A stretch of 64,000 bases of DNA from Candidatus Rokuibacteriota bacterium (lineage in GTDB: Bacteria; Methylomirabilota; Methylomirabilia; Rokubacteriales; CSP1-6). The notes below the pieces were generated by a model that ran no database searches, was not told the origin of the DNA, and saw only the letters and a program-made list of their open reading frames with translations. This document shows, piece by piece, positions 3,308 through 56,220 of this stretch (within the stretch, counting starts at the first letter, position 1; every line of letters begins with the position of its first letter). The stretch lies in the NCBI GenBank assembly GCA_003220315.1, contig QHSA01000133.1, positions 14,843 to 78,842 of the forward strand, in the 5' to 3' direction. The translations under genes and the position numbers were made by a program.

Positions 3308-4483
3308 TCAGATGATCCGCTGGCGCCGGAGATCGACGAGCCGCTCCGGCGGGTACCCGAGCGTCTCGCCGTAGATCTTGTCGTTGTGCTCGCCGAGACG
3401 CGGCGGGAAAGTGAGCGACGGCGGGTCGCCGACCGGAGGCGCGGGCAGCGCGACGGTGAGGCCGGTGCGCGGGTCCCGGACGTGGACGAGCCGAGGAGCC
3501 ACCAGCGGGTCGGCGACCACATCGGCCAGCGTGTTGACCCGCGAGATCGGGACCCCCGCCTCGCGCAGGAGGGCCTGCGCCTCGGCGGTCGGGAGCCGCG
3601 CGACGCGCTCGCCCAGCTCCCGATGGAGCCGCCCCACATCGGCGATGCGCCCGGCGTTCGCGGCCCACTCGGGCCGGTCGAGCCCGGCGAACGCGCGGAG
3701 CTTCGCCAGCGCGGCCCACTGCGCGTCGTTGCCGACGGCGACGTACACGTAACCGTCGCGGGTCTGAAAGACCGCCACGGGGGCAAAGAATGGATGGATG
3801 GTCCCCGTCCGTGTGATCCGCTCGCCCAGGCTCGCCGACAGGAGGACCGGTGAGACCATCCAGGAGACCGCGCTTCGCAGCATCGAGACGTCGAGCCGCG
3901 CCCCCGTCCCCGTCACGGCCCGGTGGTAGAGCGCCCGCATGATCGCGCCATAGCCGTGCTCCGCGGCGCCGAGGTCCACCATCGGCAGCCCGAACACCAT
4001 GGGCGGGCCGTCGGGCGCGCCGGTGAGCTCCATGAACCCCGCGCGGGCCTGGAGGATCGGGTCGTACGCGGCCTCGTCGTGGTCGGGCCCGAAGCCGGTG
4101 ACGCCGAGCCAGATCAGGTCGGGCTTGACGGCCCGGAGCGTGGCGTCGTCGATGCCGAGCTTCGCGTAGCTCCGCGGGCGCTGGTTGGTGGCGAAGACGT
4201 CCACCCGGAGCGCGCGGACGAGCTCACGGAGGATCCGGCGCCCCTCGGCCTCGCCGAGGTTCAGGGTAACCGCTTCCTTGCCACAATTGTTCGGCAGGAA
4301 ATAGCTCCGCATGTCGGCCTCGCCCAGCACGTCACGGCCGACGAATCGGTTCGGGTCCGGGCGCCCGGCGTTCTCGACGCGGATCACGCGCGCGCCGTCG
4401 CATGCGAGCCGATAGGTGAGGAACGGCAGGACCGTCGCCTGCTCGAGCGAGAGGACCGTGACGCCCTCGAGGGCTCGCGTCAC
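3308..4483 (-). CDS. CoA-transferase family III (CaiB/BaiF-like)
   Basis: [17 protein letters not shown]...[11 protein letters not shown]-terminus typical of family III CoA transferases. GTG start 4483 overlaps the TGA of the upstream ligase gene (GTGA). Confidence 0.9.
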
Positions 4484-8153: not shown

Positions 8154-8159
8154 CGCGCG

Positions 8160-9323
8160 CTACTCGGCCCTGAGCCAGTCGGTGAGCTGCTTGAAGCGGC
8201 CCCGCTCCACGCGCACCCAGAACCCCTGCCGCTGGGTCTCGTGGTCCGGGCCGATCGTGACCGGCGGCAGGATGCCGCTCTCGAATCCACGGATCCCCTC
8301 GAGCGCGACGACGAGTCCCTCGCGCGTGAGGCGGCGGCCCGCGCGCGTGGCGCCCTCCGTGAAGAGCATCGCCGCGAAGTAGCCCGAGAGGGAGTAGCGG
8401 TTGGGCTCGTTCTTCGGGAGGTACGTCTTTAAGTCATCGCGATATCGCTTGACGCCCGGCCGGTCCGAGGTCAGCGGGTCGGGCCAGAGCGACAGTCCCT
8501 CGACGCCCTCCGACGCGTCTCCCGCGAGCGCGAGGTAACGCTCGTCGGTGAGCGGGCCGGAGGAGACCATGACGACCTCGCTCCAGCCGATCTTCTGGCG
8601 CTCGCGGAGCGCCTGGGCGCCCGGGCCGGGCGTGAGGACGAGGAAGAGCACGTCGGGCCTGGCCGCCTGAAGCTTGGCCATCTGGGCGCTCACGTCGGTG
8701 ACGCCGCGCTTGACCGACTCCGTCGCCACCAGCTTGAGCCCGTGGCGCCCGAGGTCTTTCTCGAGGGCGGTGAGGAACGACTTGCCGTACTCGTCGTCCT
8801 GGTAGAGCGTCGCGAACTTCCCGAACTTCCGCGCGCCCACGAGGTAGTCGATCATCATGCGCGACTGCCGGTCGTAGAGCGTCATCCCGCTGAAGACCCA
8901 CTTCCGCCCGCGCGTGATCGGCGAGCCCTGGAACGGGAAGAGCAGCGGGACACGGTTCTCCTCGAGGTACTCGAGCGTCGCCACCACCGGCGGCGTGCCC
9001 TGCGGGGCGATGATCGCGAAGACTCCATCCTGCTCGAGGAGCTTCCGCGTGTTGGCGACCGCCTCCTGCGGCTTGTAGCCGTCGTCGTAGTACACCGTCC
9101 GCACCTTCCGGCCGTGGATGCCCCCGCCGTCGTTGACGGCCTTGAAGTAGAGGTCCACCCCGAACCTCGTCGCCTGCTCGCCCGTGAAGGCGAGCGGGCC
9201 CGAGAACGAGTTCGAGCCGCCGAGCAGGATCTCGGCGTCGGTCACGCCCTGCTGCGCCCGGGCGGGCAGCGGAGTGGCGCCCGTGGTGAGGCCCGCGATG
9301 ACGAGGGCCAGGAGGACTCGCAT
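8160..9323 (-). CDS. Branched-chain amino acid ABC transporter substrate-binding protein (paralog 1)
   Basis: 387 aa, signal peptide MRVLLALVIAGLTTGATPLPARA; about 75% identical to the next gene upstream. Confidence 0.9.
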   Translation of the reverse strand: MRVLLALVIAGLTTGATPLPARAQQGVTDAEILLGGSNSFSGPLAFTGEQATRFGVDLYFKAVNDGGGIHGRKVRTVYYDDGYKPQEAVANTRKLLEQDGVFAIIAPQGTPPVVATLEYLEENRVPLLFPFQGSPITRGRKWVFSGMTLYDRQSRMMIDYLVGARKFGKFATLYQDDEYGKSFLTALEKDLGRHGLKLVATESVKRGVTDVSAQMAKLQAARPDVLFLVLTPGPGAQALRERQKIGWSEVVMVSSGPLTDERYLALAGDASEGVEGLSLWPDPLTSDRPGVKRYRDDLKTYLPKNEPNRYSLSGYFAAMLFTEGATRAGRRLTREGLVVALEGIRGFESGILPPVTIGPDHETQRQGFWVRVERGRFKQLTDWLRAE

Positions 9324-9344
9324 ACGTCGTCTCCTTCTCGTCGG

Positions 9345-10505
9345 CTACTCCGACTTGAGCCAGTCGGTGAGCTGCTTGAAGCGGCCCCGCTCCACACGCA
9401 CCCAGACCGCCTGCTTTTGGGTCTCGTGGTCCGGGCCGATGGTGAGCGGCGGCAGGATCCCGCTCTCCCAGCGCTTGACGGACTGGAGGGCGGCGATCAA
9501 CGACTCGCGGGTCAGCCGGGCCCCCGCGCGCGTGGCGCCCTCCGCGAAGAGCATCGCGGCGAAGTAGCCCGCGAGGGAATACCGGTTGGGCTCGTTCCGC
9601 GGGAAGTAGTTCTGCATGTGCTCGCGGTAACGCCGCACGCCTGGCAGGTCCGAGGTGAGCGGGTCGGGCCAGAGCGACAGCCCCTCGACACCCTCGGCAG
9701 CGTCGCCGGCGAGCGAGAGATACCGCTCGTCGGTGAGCGGGCCGGTGGACACCATGAGCGTGTCGGTCCAGCCGATCTTCTGCCGCTCCCTGAGCGCCTG
9801 CGCGCCCGGGCCGGGTACGAGGACCAGGAAGGTCACCTCGGGCTTCGCGGTGTGGAGCTTGGCGATCTGGGCGCTCACGTCGGTGACGCCGCGCTTCACC
9901 GATTCGACCGCGAGCAGCCTGAGGCCGTGGCGCGCCAGGTCCTTCTCGAAGGCCGTGAGGAACGACTTGCCGTACTCGTCGTCCTGGTAAAGCGCGGCGA
10001 ACTTCCTGTACTTTCGCCGACCCACCAGATAGTCGATCATCATCCGTGACGAGCGGTCGCTCATCGTCATGCCCTGGAAGACCCAGTGCCGGCCGCGCGT
10101 GACGGTCGAGCTCTGGTACGGGAACAGGAGCGGGACACGGTTCTGCTCGAGGTACTCGAGCGTCGCCACGACCGGTGGGGCGCCCTGCGGGATGATGACC
10201 GCGAACACCTGGTCCTGCTCGACGAGCTTGCGTGTGTTTGCCACCGCGTCCTGCGGCTTGTAACCGTCGTCGTACCAGATCGTCCGCACCTTCCGGCCGT
10301 GGATGCCCCCGCCGTCGTTGACGGCCTTGAAGCCGAGATCCACCCCGAACTTCGTGATCTGCTCGCCCGTGAAGGCCAGCGGGCCCGAGAACGAGTTCGA
10401 GCCGCCGAGCAGGATCTCGGTGTCGGTGACGCCCTGCTCGGCGCGCGCCGGCGCCGCGACCATCACGACGAGGGCGAGCAGCGGAAGGAGCCATCCGGAT
10501 CTCAT
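9345..10505 (-). CDS. Branched-chain amino acid ABC transporter substrate-binding protein (paralog 2)
   Basis: Start ATG 10505 (MRSGWLLPLLALVVMVAAPARA), overlapped (ATGA) by the stop of the R1 mini-ORF; the ORF-track N-terminal extension is repeat-derived. Confidence 0.9.
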   Translation of the reverse strand: MRSGWLLPLLALVVMVAAPARAEQGVTDTEILLGGSNSFSGPLAFTGEQITKFGVDLGFKAVNDGGGIHGRKVRTIWYDDGYKPQDAVANTRKLVEQDQVFAVIIPQGAPPVVATLEYLEQNRVPLLFPYQSSTVTRGRHWVFQGMTMSDRSSRMMIDYLVGRRKYRKFAALYQDDEYGKSFLTAFEKDLARHGLRLLAVESVKRGVTDVSAQIAKLHTAKPEVTFLVLVPGPGAQALRERQKIGWTDTLMVSTGPLTDERYLSLAGDAAEGVEGLSLWPDPLTSDLPGVRRYREHMQNYFPRNEPNRYSLAGYFAAMLFAEGATRAGARLTRESLIAALQSVKRWESGILPPLTIGPDHETQKQAVWVRVERGRFKQLTDWLKSE

Positions 10506-10740
10506 GGTCGTTCTCCTTGTAGCGGGGTCCGCGAGCCCGGCGCCATCGGTGGGTGGCCTGAGACCAGGCGCGCCCCGGCTCCGGTCCCCCTGCCGCCGCT
10601 CATTCCAGTCCACGCCGCGAGCCCGGCGCCATCGGTGGGTGGCCTGAGACCAGGCGCGCCCCGGCTCCGGTCCCCCTGCCGCCGCTCATTCCAGTCCACG
10701 CCGCGAGCCCGGCGCCATCGGTGGGTGGCCTGCCCACCGT
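10502..10740 (-). repeat. R1-family tandem repeat (86-bp unit x ~2.35) forming chained mini-ORFs between livM and the SBP gene
   Basis: Units 10531-10616 and 10617-10702, plus a partial unit 10703-10732 that lies inside the livM 3' coding end. The livM TGA (10686-10688) overlaps ATG 10689 of a 28-codon mini-ORF (MSGGRGTGAGARLVSGHPPMAPGSRRGLE). Its TGA overlaps ATG 10603 of a 33-codon mini-ORF whose TGA (10502-10504) overlaps the SBP ATG 10505. Confidence 0.8.
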
Positions 10741-13014: not shown

Positions 13015-14120
13015 TGGATCGCCTTCCGCCACATCGGCGAGGCCCACCCGTCCCGGAGGAACGCAAGAATCTCGCGCCGGCTCAGGTCGCCGAGCCCCAG
13101 GTGCTCGAGCGCGCGGCCGCGGCCCGAGAGCTCGCGCCCGAGCAGCGCGCCGTACACGAGAAGGAGCCCCGTGATCGCGGGCGTCACCGCGCCCGCCGCC
13201 CGCGCGGCCGACTCGAGGAGCGCCAACCCGAGAACCGCGTCCTCGGTGACGTAGCGGTGCTCGAACGTGACGATCTCGCTCCAGAGGCCGCTCGCCACGA
13301 GTTTCGTCTTCGCCCCGGCGCCGTAGAGCCCCTCGGCCGCCCGCGTCTCGTCGTAGTACGTCGCGAGCTCGTAGTGGGGCGCCGCGTAGCCCCAGCCCCG
13401 GCGAGTCGCGACCCGCTCGGCGTCCACGGCGTCGATGAGCCGGCGCACGCTCGGCGTCGTGCCAGCCGCGTGGACGTCGAAGCTGCCACCGTCGATCGCG
13501 CCGGTATTCAGGAGAACGAGCGGGGGGTGGATCACGGGCCCGGCGTTGGTGAGCGCGACATCGAGGGAGTCCGCGCACGGGCGGACGGCCGGGAAGAGCT
13601 CGGCGAGCCGCGGCAAGACGCGCGGGCCCCGCGACGCGGGAAACACGCCGATCGGCAGGTTGGCGGCGCGCAGGGGCGCCTTGACGACCGCGGGCGCCGT
13701 CTTCCGCGTGAGATAGGGCAGCGTCCCGGTCTCGGCGAGGGCGAGCGGTAAGGGGCCGCCGGCGCGCGCAATCCCCCGCGCCATCGCGTAGCTACCGAGC
13801 GTTCCCGGTGTGAGCAGGATGATCTGTCGGTCGTTGAGACACGGCGCCAGGCGCTTGGCGAGCTCCTCGTGGCTCGTCGCGGGTAGCGGGACGATCAGGA
13901 CCTCCGCGCCCTCGACCGCCTCGCCGAGGTCGGTCGTGGCGCGCTCGAGCTGCGCCGTCCCGTGCCGCCCCTCGGCGTCGAGCGTGATCGTCGCGCGCTC
14001 CACGAGCGGGCCGAGCGCGTCCGCCGAGCGGCTCCAGAGCCTGACGCGGTGGCCGGCCAGCGCGAGATCGGCCGCCGTCGCGAAGCCACCATTGCCCGCG
14101 CCCAGGACTGCTAGCTTCAC
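13011..14120 (-). CDS. NAD/NADP-dependent octopine/nopaline (opine) dehydrogenase family oxidoreductase
   Basis: GTG 14120 gives MKLAVLGAGNGGFATAADLALAGHRV, a classic Rossmann N-terminus of the opine dehydrogenase family. The GTG is overlapped by the TGA of the R2 mini-ORF. Confidence 0.7.
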   Translation of the reverse strand: MKLAVLGAGNGGFATAADLALAGHRVRLWSRSADALGPLVERATITLDAEGRHGTAQLERATTDLGEAVEGAEVLIVPLPATSHEELAKRLAPCLNDRQIILLTPGTLGSYAMARGIARAGGPLPLALAETGTLPYLTRKTAPAVVKAPLRAANLPIGVFPASRGPRVLPRLAELFPAVRPCADSLDVALTNAGPVIHPPLVLLNTGAIDGGSFDVHAAGTTPSVRRLIDAVDAERVATRRGWGYAAPHYELATYYDETRAAEGLYGAGAKTKLVASGLWSEIVTFEHRYVTEDAVLGLALLESAARAAGAVTPAITGLLLVYGALLGRELSGRGRALEHLGLGDLSRREILAFLRDGWASPMWRKAIQ

Positions 14121-14228
14121 AGACTCGCCTCGCCTGTGGCTGCGGCTCGCACTGCCACGACGTTCATAAGCTCGCCTCGCACGGCGGGGCCCCAGCCCCA
14201 CGACGTGCTGCGGCTCGCACTGCCATCA
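14117..14228 (-). repeat. R2-family element forming two chained mini-ORFs (20 and 16 codons)
   Basis: The CoA-transferase TGA (14226-14228) overlaps ATG 14226 (TGATG). Mini-ORF1 MAVRAAARRGAGAPPCEASL ends with TGA 14164-14166 overlapping ATG 14167 of mini-ORF2 MNVVAVRAAATGEASL. Its TGA 14117-14119 overlaps the GTG 14120 of the next gene. Confidence 0.7.
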
Positions 14229-19995: not shown

Positions 19996-20378
19996 GTCTC
20001 CCTCGCCTCCTTCGTGAACGCGGCGACGATGTCCGGCAGCGGTGTGCCCATCGGGAACACGCGCGCGACGCCGAGCTTCCGGAGCTCCTCCACGTCGCGC
20101 GGCGGGATGATGCCGCCCACGACGACCCTGACCTCCCCGGCGCCGTGCGCCCGCAGCCCCTCGAGCACGCGGCGCGAGAGGAGCACGTGGGCGCCCGACA
20201 GCACCGAGAGCCCGACCACGTCTACGTCCTCCTGGATCGCCGCCCGCACGATCTCGTCCGGCGTCCGCTTGAGCCCCGAGTAGACGACCTCGACCCCCGC
20301 GTCGCGGAGCGCCTGCGCCACGACCTTCGCGCCGCGGTCGTGGCCGTCGAGCCCCGGCTTGGCGATCAGGACCTTCAC
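19992..20378 (-). CDS. Cobalamin (B12)-binding domain subunit of acyl-CoA mutase
   Basis: 128 aa; DGHDRG B12-binding motif; GTG start 20378 overlapped by the TGA of the R1 mini-ORF; its TGA overlaps the mutase ATG (ATGA). Confidence 0.9.
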   Translation of the reverse strand: MKVLIAKPGLDGHDRGAKVVAQALRDAGVEVVYSGLKRTPDEIVRAAIQEDVDVVGLSVLSGAHVLLSRRVLEGLRAHGAGEVRVVVGGIIPPRDVEELRKLGVARVFPMGTPLPDIVAAFTKEARET

Positions 20379-20652
20379 TGTAGCGAAGTCCGCGAGGCCG
20401 GCGCCATCGGTGGGTGGCCTGAGACCAGGCGCGACCCGGCTCCGGTCCCCATGTCGTGTCTCATTCCAACAGGGTCCGCGAGGCCGGCGCCAGCGGTGGG
20501 TGGCCGTCGGACTGACCGCCCTTCGAGCGCGGGCTTCGCCCGCGCAACCGATCCTGGGGGAGGCTCGGAGGGGGCCGTCGAGGCCCCCTTCGATGAGGTG
20601 GGTGGCCTGAGACCAGGCGCGACCCGGCTCCGGTCGTCCCGGCGCTATTCAT
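20375..20652 (-). repeat. R1-family element (two units, the distal one interrupted by a nested R3 element) forming 63- and 29-codon chained mini-ORFs
   Basis: ATG 20652 lies 2 codons before the metallophosphoesterase TAG (ATGAATAG). Mini-ORF1 reads through R1-partial, R3 and R1 to TGA 20461-20463, which overlaps ATG 20464 of mini-ORF2 (MRHDMGTGAGSRLVSGHPPMAPASRTSLQ). Its TGA 20375-20377 overlaps GTG 20378 of the B12 subunit. Confidence 0.75.
20496..20607. mobile_element. R3 MITE-like element (92 bp) with 10-bp direct target duplication GTGGGTGGCC, nested in R1
   Basis: Insert 20506-20597 flanked by GTGGGTGGCC at 20496-20505 and 20598-20607. Two internal hairpins (GCGCGGGC-TTC-GCCCGCGC; GGGGGCC-GTCGA-GGCCCCC). 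A near-identical copy (3 differences) sits at the same position of a diverged R1 at 27445-27556. Confidence 0.7.
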
Positions 20653-22645: not shown

Positions 22646-23604
22646 TGGTACGCAGCGTCCTCTCGCACCCGCCTGAGCTGCCGGAGCAGCGCACGGACCT
22701 TGGCGGTCTCGAACGTCTCGCGCCGGTCGCCGGCGTAGTCGAAGAACCCGCGCCCCGTCTTCGGGCCGAGCTCTCGCCTCGCGATCTTCTCCTCGACCAG
22801 GCGCGCCGGCTTGAAGCGGTCGTCACCGAGCGCGTCGGCGAGGAAGCGGCTCGCACGGTGGAGGATGTCCACGCCGCCCCAGTCGATGAACTCGAAGATC
22901 CCGACCTGCGCGTAACGGAAGCCCATCCCCGCCCTGAACGCCCGGTCCACGTCCTCGGGCGACGCGACGCCCTCCTCGACGAGGCGGACCGCCTCGTTCA
23001 TGAGCAACGCCTGTAGCCGCGGCCCGATGAACCCCGGCGAGTCGGCGCACCGCACGGGGACCTTCCCGAGCGCCTCGAGGACCTCGATGGCGCGGTCGAC
23101 GACGGCGGCCGTGGTCGCCTGGCCGGCGACGACCTCCACGAGCGGGACGATGTGGGCGGGGTTGAGCCAGTGCGCGACGAGGAAGCGCTCCGGACGCTCT
23201 ACCGCGTCGGCGAGGTGCCTGGGCGCGATCGTCGAGCTCGTCGAGGCGATGATCGCCCCGGCGCCGACGCGGGTCGAGAGGCGCCCCAGCACCTCGCGCT
23301 TGAGGTCGAGCAGCTCCGGCAGCGCCTCCTGCACGAAAGCGCACGCGTCGAGGCCGTCGAGCCCCGTGCGGTCCTCGATCCGGTCGAGCGCCGACGCGAC
23401 GTCGCCGCCCGCGATCACACCCTCCTCGGTCATGAGCCGGAGGTCGCGGGTGATCTCGCGCCGCGCGTCGGCGAAGACGGCGCGCCGCTCCTCGGGCGTG
23501 CGGGCCTTGACGTCGACGAGGAGGACACGGCGCCCGCCCAAGGCGAAGGCGAGCGCGATCTGGCGCCCGATCCTCCCGGGGCCGAGAACCGCGACTGTAT
23601 TCAT
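22642..23604 (-). CDS. 3-hydroxyacyl-CoA dehydrogenase (NAD-binding, HBD/FadB-type)
   Basis: MNTVAVLGPGRIGRQIALAFALGG Rossmann N-terminus; C-terminal 3HCDH dimerisation domain; ATG 23604 is the last start of the R2 tandem array. Confidence 0.9.
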   Translation of the reverse strand: MNTVAVLGPGRIGRQIALAFALGGRRVLLVDVKARTPEERRAVFADARREITRDLRLMTEEGVIAGGDVASALDRIEDRTGLDGLDACAFVQEALPELLDLKREVLGRLSTRVGAGAIIASTSSTIAPRHLADAVERPERFLVAHWLNPAHIVPLVEVVAGQATTAAVVDRAIEVLEALGKVPVRCADSPGFIGPRLQALLMNEAVRLVEEGVASPEDVDRAFRAGMGFRYAQVGIFEFIDWGGVDILHRASRFLADALGDDRFKPARLVEEKIARRELGPKTGRGFFDYAGDRRETFETAKVRALLRQLRRVREDAAYQ

Positions 23605-23868
23605 AGACTCGCCTCGCCGGCGGCTGCGGCTCGTACGACCACGTTCATAGACTCGCCTCGCCGGCGGCTGCGGCTCGTACGACCACGCTCATAGACTCGC
23701 CTCGCCGACGGCTGCGGCTCGTACGACCACGTTCATAGACTCGCCTCGCCGACGGCTGCGGCTCGTACGACCACGTTCATAGACTCGCCTCGCCGGCGGC
23801 TGCGGCTCGTACGACCACGTTCATAGACTCGCCTCGCCGACGGCTGCGGCTCGTACGACCACGTTCAC
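23602..23868 (-). repeat. R2-family 44-bp tandem array (6 ATG units plus 1 GTG unit), each unit a 15-codon mini-ORF
   Basis: Unit CATAGACTCGCCTCGCCG(G/A)CGGCTGCGGCTCGTACGACCACG(T/C)T at 44-bp period, with start codons at 23604, 23648, 23692, 23736, 23780, 23824 (ATG) and 23868 (GTG). On the minus strand each unit reads (M/V)NVVVRAAA(A/V)GEASL-TGA, with the TGA overlapping the next ATG (ATGA). The thiolase TGA (23865-23867) overlaps the first GTG; the last TGA overlaps the dehydrogenase ATG. Confidence 0.85.
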
Positions 23869-25711: not shown

Positions 25712-26184
25712 GGGCGCCTCCGCATGAGGACGCTCTCCTCGTAGCCGCACACGGTGTCGCCCCGCTGGTTCTTCACGACCGCGCTCAAGATCACGACGCC
25801 ACGGTCGGGCCTGGACGTCTCGCGGCACGCCGTGACGGTCATCTCGGTGTGCACGGTGTCGCCGAACTTGACGGGCGCGGTGAAGCGGACCCGGTCGAGC
25901 CCGAGGAGCGCGAGCGTCGTCCCCTCGAACCAGCCCGCGAGGTTCTGCGCGCCGTTGGAGACCGCGAGCGTGAGGATGCCGTGGGCGACGCGCGCGCCAA
26001 ACGGCGTCGTCGTCGCGTACTCCTCGTCCGTGTGGAGCGGGTTGAAGTCGCCCGTGAGCCCGGCGAAGCGCGAGACGTCGCCGCCGTCCACCGTGCGCCG
26101 TCCGGTCACGAGCACCTCGCCGACCTCGAAATCCTCCCAGTAGCGTCCGCGTGGTCGCGACGTCCCTCCCCGTGTCGTCGTCAT
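25708..26184 (-). CDS. MaoC-like (R)-specific enoyl-CoA hydratase / hotdog dehydratase
   Basis: 159 aa; DFNPLHTDEEYA hydratase motif. Confidence 0.85.
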   Translation of the reverse strand: MTTTRGGTSRPRGRYWEDFEVGEVLVTGRRTVDGGDVSRFAGLTGDFNPLHTDEEYATTTPFGARVAHGILTLAVSNGAQNLAGWFEGTTLALLGLDRVRFTAPVKFGDTVHTEMTVTACRETSRPDRGVVILSAVVKNQRGDTVCGYEESVLMRRRP

Positions 26185-27344
26185 CACGCGAACGCCTGAC
26201 CACGGTCCCAGTCGAGGTCGCGGTCGATCACGACGCGCAGGATCTCCGAGGTCCCGCCACCGGGCAAGAGGAAGCGCGCGTCACGGAAGTAGCGCTGGAT
26301 CGGGTACTCCATCGCGAGTCCGTACGAGGCGAAGATGCGCGCCGCCTCGTCCGTGACGCGCACCGCCATCTCCGACGCGAAGAGCTTCACCATCGCCGCC
26401 TCACGGGTGATCGCGCGTCCGGCGTCGAGCCGGGCCGCGGCCTGGTAGGTCATGAGCGTCGCCGCGTGGAGCCGGGTGAGCATGTCGGCGAGCTTGAAGC
26501 CGATCGCCTGGTGCTCGACGATCGGCTTCCCGAACGCGACCCGCTCCCGGGCGTAGGCGAGCGCGGCCGTGTACGCGGCGCGCGCGATCCCGACGGAGAT
26601 CGCCGCGGTCATCACCCGGATCTCCGAGAGGACGGACCCGATCTTCTCGACACCACCCGTTTCACCACCGAGGAGATACTCGGGAGGAACTTCCACGTCG
26701 TCGAGCCGGATCTCCCCCGTCACGGAACCACGCACCGCCATCTTGTCGATCGACTTCCCGAGCGCGATCCCGCGCATCGCCGAGCGGTCCAGGAGGAAGA
26801 GCGCGATGTTCTTCATGCCGCGCTCGGCAGAGGTCTTCGCCGCGACCGTCAGGACGTCGGCCACCGGCGCGTTGGTCACCCAGGTCTTGCCCCCGCGGAG
26901 CACCCAGCGGTCGCCGCGTCGCTCGGCGCGCGTGGTGATGTTGGCGACGTCGGAGCCGGCGCCGGGCTCGGTGAGCGCGAAGGTCGCGACCAGGTCGCCC
27001 CGGAGCGCGGGCACGAGGTACTTCCGGCGGAGCTCTTCGGTGCCGTACTTGTAGATGAAGTAGGTCCCCATCAGCGACTGCATGGCCACCGTCGCGGCCA
27101 CCGAGAGCGAGCCCCGGGCGAGCTCCTCGGCGAAGAGACAATAGGTGACCATGTCCGCGTCGGCGCCGCCGTACGCCGCCGGGTAGCGGAGACCGAGATA
27201 GCCGAGCTCGCCGAGGCGCTTGAACAGCGTCCACGGGAACTCCGCGCGCTCGTCGATCGCCTCTGCGGCCGGCACCACCTCGGCGTCGACGAGCCGCGCG
27301 ACCGCCTTGCGAAATTCTTCTTGCTCTGGCGTGAAGGCGATCAT
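26184..27344 (-). CDS. Acyl-CoA dehydrogenase
   Basis: ATG 27344 (MIAFTPEQEEF) overlapped by the TGA of the R1 mini-ORF; ACAD motifs throughout. Confidence 0.9.
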   Translation of the reverse strand: MIAFTPEQEEFRKAVARLVDAEVVPAAEAIDERAEFPWTLFKRLGELGYLGLRYPAAYGGADADMVTYCLFAEELARGSLSVAATVAMQSLMGTYFIYKYGTEELRRKYLVPALRGDLVATFALTEPGAGSDVANITTRAERRGDRWVLRGGKTWVTNAPVADVLTVAAKTSAERGMKNIALFLLDRSAMRGIALGKSIDKMAVRGSVTGEIRLDDVEVPPEYLLGGETGGVEKIGSVLSEIRVMTAAISVGIARAAYTAALAYARERVAFGKPIVEHQAIGFKLADMLTRLHAATLMTYQAAARLDAGRAITREAAMVKLFASEMAVRVTDEAARIFASYGLAMEYPIQRYFRDARFLLPGGGTSEILRVVIDRDLDWDRGQAFA

Positions 27345-27625
27345 TGTAACGGGGGCCGCGGGGCCGCCACACTCCGTGGGTGGCCTGAGACAAGGCGCGA
27401 CCCGGTTCCGTTCCGTAACGGGGGCCGCGGGGCCGCCACACTCCGTGGGTGGCCGTCGGACCGACCGCCCTTCGAGCGCGGGCTTCGCCCGCGCCACCGA
27501 TCCTGGGGGAGGCTCGGAGGGGGCCGTCGAGGCCCCCTTCGATGAGGTGGGGGGCCTGAGACGAGGTGCGACCCGGGCCCGTTCGGCACGCCGCCGCGTT
27601 TCATTCCACCGGGCGCGGCACTCAT
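27341..27625 (-). repeat. R1-family element (two units, the distal one carrying a nested R3) forming a 94-codon mini-ORF
   Basis: ATG 27625 overlaps the hyuB TGA (ATGA); the ORF reads through R1, R3 and R1 (…HLVSGPPPHRRGPRRPPPSLPQDRWRGRSPRSKGG…RLVSGHP…) to TGA 27341-27343, which overlaps the ACAD ATG 27344. Confidence 0.75.
27445..27556. mobile_element. R3 MITE-like element (92 bp) with 10-bp target duplication (GTGGGTGGCC / GTGGGGGGCC), nested in R1
   Basis: Insert 27455-27546; differs from the 20506-20597 copy at 3 positions, whereas the flanking R1 sequences differ extensively. Confidence 0.7.
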
Positions 27626-29427
27626 GACGTCTTCCGCTCCGCTCTCATCGCGCCGCGGAGCTCGCGCGTGGCGTGCTCGTCCACACGAAGGTCGACCCCC
27701 GTCCCCGCGATCACGACGCCGTAGTCCGCGCGCGCCGCCGCGATCGAGACGTAATCGTCCAGGACGTCCTCGAGCACGCGCCGGGGGTCGCGCTCGAGCG
27801 GGTCACCGTAGCCCCCGGCGCCGGGCTGCTGGAACGAGATGACGTCACCGAACGCGAACTCGCGAGAGGCCTTCCCGTGGACGAGCTGTTCGTCCGGGCC
27901 GGGATTGATCACCGTTCGGCCGAGCGTTCCCGGCCGGCCACCGAACAGGCCGTATGGCGCGAACGTCTGCCGGTCGGCGAGATTCGTGAGCTTGCCGTCG
28001 TCGGCGAGGAAGCGCATGTCGCGGCGGACGCCGCAGCCGCCCCGGAACTTCCCCGCGCCGGCGGAGTCACGGAGCAGCTCGAAGCGCTCGACGATGATCG
28101 GCAGGTTCGCCTCCTGCGCCTCGACGGGGATGTTCGAGGCGTTGAACGCCCACGCCATCGCCTCGCACCCGTCCCGCGTCGCGCGCGCGCCCGTGCCCGA
28201 GAGCACCAGCTCGTACGCGACGAAGCGGCGCCGACGCGCGCGGTCCGAGCCGCCGAAGGTCGGATTCGCCATGTGCGACGCGGCCGCCGCCACTCGGTCG
28301 GGCACCGCCCGCGCGAGCGCGCCGATCACCGACTCGAACGTGCGGTAGCAGATGATCGCGCGCGGCCCCCCGCCCGCCGGCGGCCGCGGGTTGAGGAACG
28401 ACCCCTCGGGCGCCGTCACGGTGATGGGGCGCAGCGCGCCGTCGTTCATCGGGCCGAACGGGTCGGTCAGGCACTTGACCGCGGCATACGAGTAGGAGCG
28501 CGTGTAGTTGATGTAGGAGTTCATGCCCGACGCGGTCTGCGGGCTCGAGCCCCCATAGTCGATCACCATGCCGTCGCCCGCGACCGTCACCGCGACGGCC
28601 ACGCGGAGCGGCGCGGTCCCCGGCCCCGAGTCGTCCATGAAGTCCTCGAACGTGTAGACGCCGTCCGGGACGGCCCGGATCGCGGCGCGCATGTTCGCCT
28701 CGGTCCGCTCGATGATCTCGTCCATCGCGCGGACGAGCAGGTCGCGGCCGTAGCGCGCGCCGAGCTCTTGGAGTCTCAGCTCCCCGACGCGCAACGCGCT
28801 CCGCTGGGCGCGCAGGTCGCCGAGGACCTTCTCGGGCGTGCGCGTGTTCGCGGCGATGATCCCGACGATCCCAGCGTCCTCCTCGTACGCCCTCCACACC
28901 TTGGTCGGCGGGATACGGAGCCCTTCCTGGAAGTAGTCGAAGATGCCCTCGACGCCCTGGCTGCCGGGGCGCTGGCCGCCGACGTCGGTGTGGTGGAGGA
29001 TGTTCACCGCGAAACCGACCAGCTGACCCTCGTGGAACGCGGGCTGCGTGACGAAGAAGTCCGGCAGGTGCCCCGAGCCGAGCAGCGGATCGTTCATGAG
29101 AATGGCATCGCCCGGACGCAGCGACTCGACGGGGTGCGCGGCGAGCGCGTTCTTGACGGCGACGGACATGGCCCCCATGTGCCCGGGACTGTACGGCCCC
29201 TGAGCGACCATGCGCCCCTCGGGGTCGAAGACCGCCACGGAGAAGTCCTGGCCCTCACGCGCCTGCTCGGAGTAGGCGGTCTTATGGACCGTCGTCCCGA
29301 TCTCGACCGCGATCGACTGGAGCGCGCCCCAGATGACGCCGAGGGTGATCGGGTCCGTTGTCGCGGAGGCGGCGAGGCCGGCGCACTCCGTAGGTGGCGT
29401 GCTGTGGGTGCGGTCTGGCTCCGTCAT
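27622..29427 (-). CDS. hyuB: Hydantoinase B / 5-oxoprolinase subunit (HyuB family)
   Basis: 601 aa from ATG 29427 (ATGA overlap with hyuA); DPITLGVIWGALQSI... HyuB N-terminal motif. The first ~20 codons (MTEPDRTHSTPPTECAGLAAS) are encoded by a partial R1 unit. Confidence 0.85.
   Translation of the reverse strand: MTEPDRTHSTPPTECAGLAASATTDPITLGVIWGALQSIAVEIGTTVHKTAYSEQAREGQDFSVAVFDPEGRMVAQGPYSPGHMGAMSVAVKNALAAHPVESLRPGDAILMNDPLLGSGHLPDFFVTQPAFHEGQLVGFAVNILHHTDVGGQRPGSQGVEGIFDYFQEGLRIPPTKVWRAYEEDAGIVGIIAANTRTPEKVLGDLRAQRSALRVGELRLQELGARYGRDLLVRAMDEIIERTEANMRAAIRAVPDGVYTFEDFMDDSGPGTAPLRVAVAVTVAGDGMVIDYGGSSPQTASGMNSYINYTRSYSYAAVKCLTDPFGPMNDGALRPITVTAPEGSFLNPRPPAGGGPRAIICYRTFESVIGALARAVPDRVAAAASHMANPTFGGSDRARRRRFVAYELVLSGTGARATRDGCEAMAWAFNASNIPVEAQEANLPIIVERFELLRDSAGAGKFRGGCGVRRDMRFLADDGKLTNLADRQTFAPYGLFGGRPGTLGRTVINPGPDEQLVHGKASREFAFGDVISFQQPGAGGYGDPLERDPRRVLEDVLDDYVSIAAARADYGVVIAGTGVDLRVDEHATRELRGAMRAERKTS
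29381..29427 (-). repeat. Partial R1 unit fused to the 5' end of hyuB
   Basis: GCCGGCGCACTCCGTAGGTGGC... encodes the PPTECAGLAA peptide shared with other R1 frames; ends with ...CATTCCA at the hyuA stop. Confidence 0.6.
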
Positions 29428-31487
29428 TCCAACTCCACCAGGAGACTCGCGTACTCGTCCACAGCCGCCGAGGCGCCGGGCGGAAGGACGGTCGTGGACT
29501 CGCGCTCCTCCACGATCGCCGGCCCCGTGAGGCGCGCCCCTGCCGCGAGCGCGTAGCGGTCGTAGACCGGCGTGTCCACGTAGCCGCGCGCCTCGGGAAA
29601 GTAGGCGCGACGGCTCCCCTTCACCGCGCGGCCACGGTCCTCGGTCTGCGCCTTCGCGAGCGCGATGCGGGGCGAGCCGCCGACCGCCGAGAGCTTCCAC
29701 GTGACGACCTCCACGGGCTCGCGCGGGTTCGCATAGCCGTAGCGGGCGGCGTAGACCTCGTCGAACGTCGCGCGCACCCGGGCGAGCGCGGCGGCGTCGA
29801 GCTCGCCCGACGGCACGGGAACGGTCAGCTCGTACCCCTGGCCCACGTAGCGCGCGTCGGCCGAGCGCGCCACGTGGATCTCACCGGCGACGGCGGACTC
29901 GCGGACGACCTCCGTCGCCTGCCGCGCCATCTCCGCGTACATCCGACCGAGCTGCGCGAGATCCACGGCGTCGAGCCGGCGGACGTAAGTGCGCGCCACG
30001 TCGAACCGGAGCTCCGCGGCCAGCAGGCCGATCGCGGCCGTGACCCCGGCGGCCGCGGGGAGAATCACGCGCGGGATGCCGAGCGCCTGGGCGAGTCGGC
30101 AGCCGTGCACGGGGCCCGAGCCGCCGAAGGCGACGAACGTGAGGTCGCGCGGGTCGCGGCCGCGCTCGATCGAGACCACGCGGGTCGCCAGCTCCATGTT
30201 GGTGGTGACGATCGCGTGGATCCCCCACGCCGCGTCCTCGAGCGACAGGCCGAGCGGCGCCGCGACCTTCGTCTCGATCGCCCGCGTCGCCGCCGCCGGC
30301 TCGAGCTTGACCGAGCCGCCCGCGAAGTAGTCGGGGTTGATATAGCCGAGCACCACGTTCGCGTCGGTGACCGTGGGCTCGACACCACCGCGCCCGTAGC
30401 AGACGGGCCCCGGCACCGACGAGGCGCTCTCCGGGCCCACGGCGATCACGCCGAGCCGCGCGCGGGCGATCGAGCCGCCGCCCGCACCGATCTCGACGAG
30501 GTCGATCGCCTGAATGTTCATCGGCAGGCCGCTGCCCGGGGCGTTGTTGACGCGGTGGAGCTCGAACGCCGTCGTCGTGGAGGGCCGCCCGCGCTCGACG
30601 AGTGCGAGCTTGGCGGTCGTGCCCCCCATGTCGAACGCGATCAGGTCGCGGTGGCCGGTGAGCTCGCCGTACGCCGCCGCCATCAGGGCGCCCGCGGCGG
30701 GACCCGACTCGATCATCCGCACGGGGTAGCGCTGCATCGCCTCCGCCGTCGCGACGCCGCCGGAGGACTGCATGACGAAGAGCCGGCCCCGGTAGCCGCG
30801 CTCGGCCAGGGCGGCGGCGAGCCCGCGCAGGTACTCGCGCACGGCCGTCATCACGTAAGCGTTGACCACGGTCGTCGAGGTCCGCTCGTATTCGCGGAAG
30901 GTCGGCGACACCTCGTGCGACATCGTCACCGTCACGTGCGGAGCCTCTTCTCCGACGATCTCCGCCAGGCGCCGCTCGTGGAGGGGGTTCAGGTACGCGT
31001 GCAGGAGGCAGATCGCGAGGGTCGTGACCTCGCGCGCGACGAGCTCGCGGACGGCCCGACGGGCGTCGGCCTCGTCGAGCGGGCTCCGCACCGAGCCGTC
31101 CGCCAGGACGCGCTCGGTCACCTCGCCGATCAACCGGCGAGGGATCAGCGGCGCGGGCTTCTCGATCTGGAGGTCGTAGACCTGGTAGCGCTTCTCGCGC
31201 CCGATCAGGAGCACGTCGCGGAAGCCCCGCGTGGTGAGGAGCCCGACGCCTCGCGCCTTGCGCTCGATGACGACATTGGAGCCGAGTGTCGTCCCGTGGA
31301 CCGCCTGGGCCACGTCGCGCCACGTGACACCGCTCCGGGCGACGAGCTCGTCGAGCCCCGCGAGGCAGGCCTCGGAGGGGTCCGGGTAGGTCGTCAGCCG
31401 CTTCGCGATGAGGAGCTCCCCCGACGGCGACTGCAGCACCAAGTCGGTGAACGTCCCCCCGACGTCGAACCCGATCCGGTAGGGCAT
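29424..31487 (-). CDS. hyuA: Hydantoinase A / 5-oxoprolinase subunit (HyuA family)
   Basis: 687 aa; MPYRIGFDVGGTFTD N-terminus; ATG 31487 overlaps the TAA of the R1 mini-ORF (TAATG). Confidence 0.9.
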   Translation of the reverse strand: MPYRIGFDVGGTFTDLVLQSPSGELLIAKRLTTYPDPSEACLAGLDELVARSGVTWRDVAQAVHGTTLGSNVVIERKARGVGLLTTRGFRDVLLIGREKRYQVYDLQIEKPAPLIPRRLIGEVTERVLADGSVRSPLDEADARRAVRELVAREVTTLAICLLHAYLNPLHERRLAEIVGEEAPHVTVTMSHEVSPTFREYERTSTTVVNAYVMTAVREYLRGLAAALAERGYRGRLFVMQSSGGVATAEAMQRYPVRMIESGPAAGALMAAAYGELTGHRDLIAFDMGGTTAKLALVERGRPSTTTAFELHRVNNAPGSGLPMNIQAIDLVEIGAGGGSIARARLGVIAVGPESASSVPGPVCYGRGGVEPTVTDANVVLGYINPDYFAGGSVKLEPAAATRAIETKVAAPLGLSLEDAAWGIHAIVTTNMELATRVVSIERGRDPRDLTFVAFGGSGPVHGCRLAQALGIPRVILPAAAGVTAAIGLLAAELRFDVARTYVRRLDAVDLAQLGRMYAEMARQATEVVRESAVAGEIHVARSADARYVGQGYELTVPVPSGELDAAALARVRATFDEVYAARYGYANPREPVEVVTWKLSAVGGSPRIALAKAQTEDRGRAVKGSRRAYFPEARGYVDTPVYDRYALAAGARLTGPAIVEERESTTVLPPGASAAVDEYASLLVELE

Positions 31488-31567
31488 TATTGGTGGCCTG
31501 AGACGAGGTGCGCCCCGGCTCCGTTCCGCCCGCCGCTTCCCATTCCAGCGAGCCGCAAGGCCGGCAT
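31487..31567 (-). repeat. Single R1 unit forming a 26-codon mini-ORF between the GntR gene and hyuA
   Basis: ATG 31567 lies 1 nt after the GntR TAG (31569-31571); MPALRLAGMGSGGRNGAGAHLVSGHQ-TAA, with the TAA overlapping the hyuA ATG. Confidence 0.65.
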
Positions 31568-33051: not shown

Positions 33052-34200
33052 CTAGGCGCGCACCAGCTCGCGCGCGATCACGACCCGCTGGATCTGGTTC
33101 GTGCCCTCGTAGATCTGCGTGATCTTGGCGTCGCGCATGAAGCGCTCGACGGGATACTCGCGCGTGTAGCCGTAGCCGCCGAAGATCTGCACGGCGTCCG
33201 TCGTGACCCGCATCGCCGCGTCGCCCGCGAAGCACTTGGCCATCGACGACTCGAACGCCGTGCGGGGAGCGCCGCGGTCCAGGAGCGCTGCGGCGTGGTG
33301 GACCATGAGGCGCGCCCCGTGCGTCTGCATCGCCATGTCCGCGAGCATGAACTGAATCCCCTGGAAGGCCGCGATCGGCTGGCCGAACTGCTGCCGCTCT
33401 TTGGCGTAGGCGACGGCGGCGTCGAGCGCGGCCTGGGCGATCCCCACGGCCTGGGCGCCCACGGCCGGGCGCGAGCCGTCCAGGACGCGCAGCGCGATCC
33501 TGAACCCCTCGCCCTCGTCGCCGAGACGGTTCTCGACGGGCACCTCGCAGTCGCTCAGATGGAGCGCAACCGTCGGGGACCCGCGAATCCCCAGCTTGCG
33601 CTCGAGCTTGCCGAGGGCGAACCCGGGGAACGTCGGCTCGACCAGGAACGCGGTGACCCCGCGGTGGCCCTTGCCGCGGTCCACGGTGGCGAAGAGGGTG
33701 ATGACGCCGGCGTGACTGCCGTTCGTGACCCACATCTTGGTCCCGTTGAGAAGGTAGCGGTCGCCCCGGCGCACGGCGGTCGTCGTGAGCGCGCCGGCGT
33801 CGGACCCGGCGCCAGGCTCCGAGAGGGAGAACGCCGCGGTGATCTCGCCCGCAGCGAGCCGCGGCAGGTAGCGCCGCTTCTGCGCCTCGCTGCCTGCCGT
33901 GACGATCGGGAACCCGCCGGTGTACTGGACGAGATAGATGACGGCGGTGGACGCACACGCCCAGGCAATCTCCTCGACCGCCAGGCAGAAGGCGAGCGCG
34001 CCGAGCCCGGCGCCGCCGTAGGCCTCGGGGATGTAGAGCCCCATGAGCCCCTGCTCGCCGAGTGACGTGAGCTGGTCGGTCGGATACGTCTCCGTCTCGT
34101 CCACCTGCGCGGCGAGTGGCGCGACCCGTTCGCGGGCGAGAGCCCGGACGAGGTCGCGCACCTGGCGCTGCTCGGCGGTCAGATCGAAGAGGTCGCGCAT
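33052..34200 (-). CDS. Acyl-CoA dehydrogenase
   Basis: Start ATG 34200 ([14 protein letters not shown]); about 65% identical to the ACAD at 2148-3296. Confidence 0.9.
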
Positions 34201-38593: not shown

Positions 38594-38597
38594 CCCG

Positions 38598-38690
38598 TGC
38601 GTCGGAATCACCGCTGTTCGAGCGCCGGCTCCGCCGGCGCAACCGATCCGGGGGGAGGCATCGGAAGGGGGGCGAAGCCCCCCTCCGAGT
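38598..38690. repeat. R3-like hairpin element at convergent gene ends (probable bidirectional terminator)
   Basis: GTCGGAATCACCGCTGTTCGAGCGCCGGCTCCGCCGGCGCAACCGATCCGGGGGGAGGCATCGGAAGGGGGGCGAAGCCCCCCTCCGAG; same architecture as R3, with compensatory stem changes (GCGCCGGC/GCCGGCGC versus GCGCGGGC/GCCCGCGC). Confidence 0.6.
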
Positions 38691-38693
38691 TAC

Positions 38694-56052: not shown

Positions 56053-56090
56053 TCGGCGGCTTGCCGTGATCGGCCGCGTGCTAGGAGCGT

Positions 56091-56220
56091 GTCGGAGAAA
56101 GGGCTGTCGACCGGGGTTCGAGCGCCGGCTTTGCCGGCGCACCGATTCCTCGGGGGTTCGCTCCCTCTCGGGAGCGCTCCCCCGGCCTCGGAGGGGGCCG
56201 TCGCGCCCTTAGGGCGCGCC
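56091..56220. repeat. R3-like hairpin element (extended variant)
   Basis: GTCGGAGAAAGGGCTGTCGACCGGGGTTCGAGCGCCGGCTTTGCCGGCGCACCGATTCC...CTCGGAGGGGGCCGTCGCGCCCTTAGGGCGCGCC; shares the TTCGAGCGCCGGC-loop-GCCGGCGC-ACCGAT core and GGAGGGGGCC hairpin with other R3 copies. Lies in frame with the downstream gene, giving a spurious N-terminal extension. Confidence 0.55.

Follow-up and report, generated by a model that had tools for sequence, protein, structure and literature searches.

In the 64,000-nt stretch of Candidatus Rokuibacteriota bacterium DNA analyzed here (contig QHSA01000133.1, positions 14,843 to 78,842; hereafter the window), hyuB, a gene of the hydantoinase B/oxoprolinase family (27622-29427, minus strand), is followed on the same strand by an acyl-CoA dehydrogenase gene (ACAD; 26184-27344), and the 277-nt spacer between them is bridged by a single small open reading frame (ORF). 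This mini-ORF (27341-27625, minus strand) consists of 94 codons plus a TGA, starts at the ATG at position 27625 and has the conceptual translation MSAAPGGMKRGGVPNGPGSHLVSGPPPHRRGPRRPPPSLPQDRWRGRSPRSKGGRSDGHPRSVAAPRPPLRNGTGSRLVSGHPRSVAAPRPPLQ. It is joined to each neighboring gene by a 4-nt ATGA overlap in which the letters TG are common to stop and start. In the upstream overlap (27622-27625) the hyuB TGA (27624-27622) is combined with the mini-ORF ATG (27625-27623), and in the downstream overlap (27341-27344) the mini-ORF TGA (27343-27341) is combined with the ACAD ATG (27344-27342), the latter in the sequence context GTTACAATGATCGCC. The hyuB product matches PF02538 (E = 1e-165) and terminates in ...K T S followed by the stop, the same ending being present at the unfilled junction of the relative L064 (CCGACGTCATGATCGCG). 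The ACAD product exhibits three Pfam domains, of which the Acyl-CoA_dh_N match begins at residue 5, and its N-terminus (MI.FT.EQEEF) is conserved in 80 relatives. Based on the Hydantoinase_B match and on an ACAD domain that is recognizable from residue 5, both gene ends are well placed. A scan of the spacer returned no promoter or terminator, the sole match to a GC hairpin with a T tract being located on the other strand and inside ACAD, and hyuB and ACAD are therefore presumably co-transcribed. No tRNA or tmRNA was found in the window by tRNA scanning, and no Rfam match was obtained in it at the gathering score (best sub-threshold match of 15.5 bits, E = 1.5, with E values up to 10 considered), while a blastn search against plasmids gave no match.

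The spacer is a composite of two repeat families, here designated R1 and R3, all parts of which lie on the minus strand. R1 is a polar intercistronic repeat of ~54-86 nt that usually ends in ...GCTACA directly against the next start codon. Its left part in the spacer (27546-27621) contains the motif GGAATGA at 27601-27607, which is read in the mini-ORF frame as G-M-K, and the R1 core, TCTCAGGCCCCC, at 27550-27561. Nested in R1 is the 91-nt R3 (27455-27545), which comprises two GC-rich hairpins with the stems GGGGGCC/GGCCCCC and GCGCGGGC/GCCCGCGC, and which is bordered by a left (27546-27556, GGCCCCCCACC) and a right (27444-27454, GGCCACCCACG) copy of an 11-nt direct repeat; R3 plus one copy of this repeat adds 102 nt, i.e., 34 codons, in frame. 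The right part of R1 (27415-27454) represents a 3' arm ending in ...CCCCGTTAC, a 40-nt exact repeat with a spacing of 69 nt, and is followed by a full R1 unit of 69 nt (27346-27414, core at 27379-27390) that is read through in frame as 23 codons and is present or absent depending on the strain. Precise removal of the spacer would leave a repeat-free hyuB-ACAD junction reading ...GTCATGATC.... An earlier note, made from the letters alone, had described one mini-ORF that bridges hyuB and ACAD with a 4-nt overlap at either end and traverses R1, R3 and R1, and the coordinates and the repeat architecture bear out both statements. Its observation that the R3-encoded segment is nearly identical to one at 20.5 kb stands at the DNA level, the R3 sequence being 98% identical to the copy at 20505-20593, but not as a case of peptide conservation: each of the two differences (L/W and Q/R) falls on a second codon position and is non-synonymous, and the hairpins exhibit compensatory changes.

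An identical ACAD protein is present on at least 23 soil-metagenome contigs, and a metagenome scan identified 80 further ACAD loci (80-100% identity), in nearly all of which hyuB is located upstream. In ~45 of ~75 syntenic relatives (79-90% ACAD identity), the hyuB TGA lies directly on the ACAD ATG or GTG (NNNATGATC), and the unfilled L064 junction equals the two flanks of the window spacer joined together. These ~45 directly overlapping junctions identify a 4-nt overlap (..ACG TCA TGA TC..) as the ancestral state. The repeats entered this overlap, hence the ATGA now found on both sides, and a single ancestral hyuB/ACAD overlap, at present flanking the inserted repeats, accounts for the two ATGAs better than two independent coincidences would. 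R1-type units of highly varied architecture occupy the junction in 33 loci, with spacers of ~50-457 nt, and in 29 of these it is possible to pass from hyuB to ACAD via stop/start overlaps alone. In six loci (L016, L018, L021, L039, L059 and L065) the hyuB frame continues through a partial R1 as far as the ATGA of the ACAD start, where it ends, the repeat forming a C-terminal tail, while the other chained junctions possess one or two mini-ORFs joined by ATGA or GTGA.

The chain is retained through changes in spacer length. Within the clade sharing at least 99% ACAD identity, the bridge is kept with spacers of 205, 208, 232, 274, 277 and 319 nt, and spacers of 203-319 nt occur among contigs with 99-100% identical ACAD, representing a length polymorphism among strains. 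Indels of 3, 24, 45, 69 and 168 nt leave the chain intact, and in L046 (2070-2449) and L068 (2185-2443) 24/48-nt sub-repeats located upstream of R1 units lengthen the mini-ORF, still in frame, to 106-154 codons. In L005, the frame shifted by a 1-nt indel stops on the internal GGAATGA and restarts at its ATG, which rescues the chain and gives ORFs of 22 and 63 codons. Of ten simple length changes, eight are divisible by three (binomial estimate ~0.003, for events that are not fully independent).

The R1 core occurs in seven copies in the window, as compared to 0.37 expected, all of them on the minus strand like their genes. A search of species-representative genomes, using a pattern that omitted the R1 3' end, retrieved at least 111 R1 stretches, nearly all in metagenome-assembled genomes (MAGs) of Candidatus Rokubacteria/Rokuibacteriota/Methylomirabilota. 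The repeat is polar, as the downstream gene is on the same strand as R1 in 75 of 86 arrays, and both flanking genes are in 59 of 78. Units measure 69 and 86 nt in the window and 54-80 nt in other genomes, and fall into two types, i.e., those with a length divisible by three that are read straight through (24, 54, 66 and 69 nt) and those of 2 mod 3 that carry their own ATGA (44, 65, 80 and 86 nt). The stop/start overlaps are specific to one frame: in frame a, in which the core reads S-G-H-P, 52 of 128 copies have a first stop that overlaps the ATG or GTG of a long coding-like ORF, versus 6 and 14 in the other frames (the count was limited to 130 nt, since distant gene ends confounded an unlimited count). 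The TGA most often lies 47 nt from the core, which indicates that R1 ends in ...GCTACA directly against RTGA (where R is A or G).

For arrays with same-strand coding flanks, a frame-to-frame walk was performed from the frame of the upstream gene to that of the downstream gene. An unbroken path was found in 44 of 56 R1 arrays, 39 of which require RTGA/TAATG overlaps only, and the share of unbroken paths falls to 42% when, as a control, a random deletion of 1-2 nt is made inside the array. These figures supersede an initial walk based on a composition-based gene finder (34/64), most 'broken' cases of which were due to missed small genes or wrong upstream genes. Furthermore, 21 of 27 adjacent R1 pairs exhibit frame continuity, being spaced by 0 mod 3 without a stop or by 2 mod 3 with an RTGA, and within the window all examined R1 junctions, at 10.6, 20.5, 27.5 and 31.5 kb, chain.

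It is probable that R1 is an intercistronic repeat comparable to MIRUs (mycobacterial interspersed repetitive units), the frame of which preserves translational coupling between the genes that it separates; this reading, including the translation of the frame, is drawn from the nucleotide sequence. A ribosome would end hyuB at its TGA and restart at the overlapping mini-ORF ATG, would translate through the repeats while melting the R3 hairpins, and would then stop at the TGA that overlaps the ACAD ATG and re-initiate there. The GGAATGA motif would act to reset the frame, since it can be read as G-M-K in one frame and as a stop plus restart in another. The peptide would be a by-product, and the feature that is maintained would be the unbroken path delivering ribosomes to an ACAD start that is devoid of a Shine-Dalgarno sequence. 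No Shine-Dalgarno match is present upstream of the ACAD ATG, the anti-Shine-Dalgarno duplex energy being -1.7 kcal/mol, and for ACAD starts behind R1 it averages -2.7 kcal/mol (n = 14), versus -5.4 kcal/mol for those at unfilled junctions (n = 38). We infer translation of the ORF, ACAD synthesis driven by re-initiation, and a frame kept by selection and not by the mechanics of insertion alone.

A purely coincidental origin would require that the mini-ORF is a chance open frame over non-coding repeats similar to repetitive extragenic palindromic (REP) sequences, in a genome of 72-76% GC, and that both overlaps are accidental. In favor of this view, all three minus-strand frames are open across the repeats with the exception of the ATGA motifs, the ACAD frame likewise being open through the entire spacer, and the in-frame spacer stays open in 41% of its dinucleotide shuffles. 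In addition, the fold of the whole spacer is not more stable than that of shuffles (z = -0.22). Openness is therefore uninformative, and only the ATGA-to-ATGA length modulo three is informative. When random spacers of spacer-like composition were placed between random flanks, a bridging ORF with a double overlap arose in 0.9% of trials; one such case per 64-kb window is only mildly surprising and not compelling, and the test must thus rest on recurrence. It is the recurrence of the arrangement that exceeds chance, both among further strains and species at the hyuB-ACAD junction and throughout the R1 family, as is evident from 29 of 33 filled loci, from 44 of 56 arrays with an unbroken path, from overlaps in one frame (52 versus 6 and 14) and from the chaining of each examined R1 junction in the window. 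The earlier note had held that two exact overlaps are not expected by chance and had suggested a simulation with random high-GC spacers, and its view is upheld by the rarity of double overlaps in that simulation (~1%) when set against their frequency at the locus and in the arrays. A coincidental frame is thus already disfavored and very improbable. The possibility that the mini-ORF encodes a functional Pro/Arg/Gly-rich small protein draws on an ORF that is intact, with a start codon, in most strains, and on the recurrence of an SGHP-containing motif; this motif, however, is the conserved DNA core and is also found in copies outside any ORF. The coding signature is absent: the GC content at codon positions 1/2/3 is 0.76/0.75/0.73, versus ~0.70/0.50/0.92 in neighboring genes (GC3 of 0.88-0.95), so that the mini-ORF does not display the GC3 > GC1 > GC2 order of host genes. 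Column entropy at codon positions 1/2/3 among 56 canonical R1 copies is 0.89/0.53/0.65, without a third-position excess, and strains with identical ACAD have mini-ORFs of 22 to 108 codons, while both differences between the R3 copies alter the encoded residue. The peptide matches no Pfam family, three variant mini-ORF peptides (including the exact window peptide) were absent from an exact look-up among 15 billion predicted proteins, i.e., were not called by any pipeline represented there, and no gene was called in the hyuB-ACAD spacer on the six retrieved contigs that carry the exact ACAD. Neither third-position variability nor length nor homologues give any sign that the peptide is under purifying selection. 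The frame of the mini-ORF is real but it does not look like a protein gene, and a functional small protein is exceedingly improbable.

An alternative of a different nature holds that the overlaps are an insertion footprint and nothing else, R1 being a small mobile element that targets RTGA or bears ATGA at one end, with an untranslated frame that has no role and with ACAD being translated independently. This is consistent with the presence of ATGA on both flanks of the insert and of a single ATGA at unfilled sites, with unit lengths that are properties of the family, and with frames that are all open regardless. Furthermore, the reverse complement of the R1 3' end, which begins TGTAGC/TGTAAC, resembles, where it reads TCAT|TGTAGC, a GTAG-headed REP beside a tetranucleotide target. 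Yet the chain outlives secondary indels that are unrelated to insertion (of 3, 24, 45 and 69 nt, in addition to 24-nt sub-repeat expansions and the 102-nt R3 insertion), the 1-nt indel is rescued by a stop and restart, the ACAD start behind R1 is without a Shine-Dalgarno sequence, and copies of R1 in 5' untranslated regions (UTRs) are not followed by ATGA. On balance, a footprint devoid of any role is considered unlikely. The 5' UTR copies without ATGA also indicate that insertion does not require RTGA as its target. A putative IS200/IS605-like target was considered in TCAT, which is ATGA in reverse complement; the same copies argue against a strict target.

Several observations weigh against the proposal that the R1 frame preserves coupling. 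The path is broken in 12 of 56 R1 arrays, frame continuity is lost in six of 27 adjacent R1 pairs, four of the 33 filled variants at the hyuB-ACAD locus do not chain, and in L010 a 74-nt deletion instead fuses the frame to ACAD. The frame statistics are in part a legacy of the repeat unit itself, with identical periods turning up repeatedly and events that lack independence, and a fresh insertion of fixed length with an ATGA on each side would chain without selection. As all frames are open, the existence of an 'ORF' depends only on length modulo three. The gene models used in these analyses are crude composition-based calls and not the output of a trained gene finder. The R3 hairpins are very stable (-50 kcal/mol) and might hinder translation rather than tolerate it. 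Finally, some R1 copies (L127, L129, L090 and that at ~10505-10530 of the window) carry AAGGAG, a spacer and a start codon instead of RTGA, and these 5' UTR copies with an AAGGAG Shine-Dalgarno sequence imply that coupling is not the only context of R1.

The closest counterpart among the systems compared is the MIRU. According to PMC12548453, which cites Supply 1997, start codons are the sites at which MIRUs insert, and their internal ORF is coupled at -4 nt, which minimizes the effect on expression; they are 40-100 bp in size, and 41 loci are present in H37Rv, of which 12 are polymorphic (PMC2734929). The repeats described here share four structural features with MIRUs, namely unit size (40-100 bp, often in tandem), placement between co-directional genes in the orientation of these genes, an internal ORF at the start codon whose own start and stop overlap the stop and start of the neighbors (-4 nt), and copy-number variation among strains (here, spacers of 203-319 nt and a 44-nt unit, described below, in 1-6 copies). 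The likeness is one of structural features and, as the hosts are MAGs of uncultivated Rokubacteria, a different phylum, the repeats are not MIRUs in the strict taxon-bound sense. Other differences are the presence of at least two families in one window (R1 and the 44-nt unit), the side-by-side occurrence of read-through (3n) and stop/restart (3n+2) units with GGAATGA resetting the frame, the absorption of some units as C- or N-terminal extensions of real proteins, and the nesting of a hairpin repeat, R3, that is read through within R1. A literature search found no description of intergenic repeats of such a kind in Rokubacteria; in the literature found, repeats with coupling ORFs are described only for MIRUs, the function of which is still debated. 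The read-through units, the frame-resetting motif, the absorption into protein termini and the nested hairpin repeat are new relative to MIRUs, and the Rokubacteria repeats apparently represent an independent system.

A second comparison concerns short coupling ORFs and the leaders of bicistronic designs, which bring ribosomes to the start of a downstream gene (for a review, see PMC12548453). As in these leaders, a short ORF with an irrelevant product ends on the start codon of the gene that it would serve, and the downstream start would be freed from Shine-Dalgarno and local RNA structure requirements. The mini-ORFs differ from them in being derived from a dispersed, copy-number-variable repeat, in having a 5' end that is also coupled to the upstream gene, and in forming chains of up to six ORFs.

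R3, in turn, is comparable to the RAYT-associated REPs and bacterial interspersed mosaic elements (BIMEs), being a short, GC-rich, dispersed hairpin located after stop codons or between convergent genes and exhibiting compensatory stem changes. To our knowledge, REPs do not carry coupling ORFs. R3 in the hyuB-ACAD spacer differs from them by lying not in a 3' UTR but within an intercistronic unit that is open and preserves the frame. R1 is reminiscent of the GTAG head of REPs in the reverse complement of its 3' end; its predicted stem is weak, with four weak pairs from RNAalifold, a GAGCC/GGCTC stem that is 85% paired with almost no covariation, and a fold z of ~ -0.8. R3 folds into two GC hairpins in four copies (z = -1.7 for the window copy at 27.5 kb and -2.0 to -4.8 for the others), with compensatory changes in both stems (GCGCGGGC/GCCCGCGC versus GCGCCGGC/GCCGGCGC, and GGGGGCC/GGCCCCC versus GGGGGGC/GCCCCCC). 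Standalone copies are positioned 2-5 nt past a stop codon, in constant orientation to the upstream gene (38594-38693 of the window; L152, L135 and L106), and this position, together with the covarying hairpins, points to R3 as a REP-like 3'-UTR element. In this species R3 appears to have landed in the R1 core on two occasions, each time between copies of one and the same 11-nt repeat. In both composites (20501-20598 and 27450-27547, minus strand) R3 is bracketed by this 11-nt direct repeat from the R1 core (GGCCACCCACC), and the R1 parts around the two R3 copies are far less alike than the 98%-identical R3 copies themselves. The bracketing repeat and the identity of the R3 copies suggest either site-specific insertion with target duplication or gene conversion. 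The standalone R3 at 38594-38693 (minus strand) fills a 100-nt gap between convergent genes and begins 5 nt after a TAG, and a diverged variant at ~56090-56210 (minus strand) shares the second hairpin only (GCGCCGGC AAA GCCGGCGC TCGAAC).

An apparently independent and richer system than that of the MIRUs, in an uncultivated soil phylum, would point to a general means by which small repeats last within operons, namely taking up a stop/start overlap without interrupting the flow of ribosomes. The strains provide a natural allele series (1-6 units and spacers of 203-319 nt) for studying the effect of spacer-ORF length on coupling, and the repeats account for unusual extensions at the C- and N-termini of proteins and for starts that are mis-called when Rokubacteria are annotated, besides being usable as strain-typing markers in soil metagenomes. 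A bolder proposal, which we regard as speculative and rather doubtful, is that Rokubacteria harbor several mobile, copy-number-variable 'coupling cassette' families that specifically colonize RTGA overlaps and would serve in natural soil populations as heritable rheostats or translation-dependent attenuators of the ratio between neighboring operon proteins, by varying how many chained mini-ORFs are present and of which type, a translated double-hairpin R3 among them. The repeats would then constitute a regulatory layer and not a neutral passenger.

Several other junctions in the window, all on the minus strand, are bridged by chained mini-ORFs. A sister composite at 20375-20652, with the same arrangement of 11-nt repeat and R3 as at 27.5 kb, comprises a 63-codon ORF across R1-left, R3 and R1-right followed by a 29-codon R1 ORF; its ATG overlaps the upstream TAG by 8 nt, and the remaining links are an ATGA and a GTGA at the start of a mutase B12-binding subunit gene (GTG 20378). 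Two 86-nt R1 units at 10502-10689 form ORFs of 29 and 33 codons that lead by an ATGA-ATGA-ATGA series to a binding-protein gene (ATG 10505). At 31487-31567, a truncated R1 forms a 26-codon ORF that starts 1 nt after the upstream TAG and ends in a TAA overlapping the hyuA ATG (TAATG). A 44-nt tandem array at 23601-23868, between genes for a thiolase and a 3-hydroxyacyl-CoA dehydrogenase, contains six 15-codon ORFs (MNVVVRAAAxGEASL and a stop). The thiolase TGA lies on a GTG, the units are linked by ATGA, and the final TGA lies on the 3-hydroxyacyl-CoA dehydrogenase ATG at 23604. The copy number of this unit varies from 1 to 6 among strains, with spacers of 41, 85, 129, 173 and 261 nt (L001-L006), and the array appears to represent a second coupling-repeat family that is unrelated to R1 in sequence. 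Two relatives of the 44-nt unit, with ORFs of 20 and 16 codons, are located at 14117-14228 between a 410-codon ORF and a 369-codon gene, and are linked by TGATG, ATGA and GTGA.

Repeats also appear at protein termini in the window. At 10686-10740 (minus strand), the membrane protein encoded upstream of the two 86-nt R1 units ends in ...RTRWAGHPPMAPGSRRGLE, its last ~15 residues being derived from a partial R1; its stop lies within the GGAATGA of this R1, which identifies the repeat as absorbed in the form of a C-terminal tail. At 29345-29427 (minus strand), the hyuA stop is located inside a GGAATGA and overlaps the hyuB ATG, and the first ~26 hyuB codons (MTEPDRTHSTPPTECAGLAASAT) resemble a degenerate R1 in which ACAACG replaces the usual ACAATG, which suggests a repeat absorbed as an N-terminal extension. 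Among the called genes of L006 (NCBI assembly), hyuB begins ~25 codons past the hyuA stop (575 versus 601 aa). In L130 (~3790-3915, minus strand), a tandem repeat with a 16-nt period that includes TAG and ATG (AAGCGATAGACATGCC) is found upstream of the R1 units. Long direct repeats at 2160-2685 versus 33064-33589 and at 8159-8597 versus 9344-9782 (78-90% identity) lie inside coding regions, and probably reflect paralogous genes, e.g., duplicated transporter components, that are apparently unrelated to R1 and R3.

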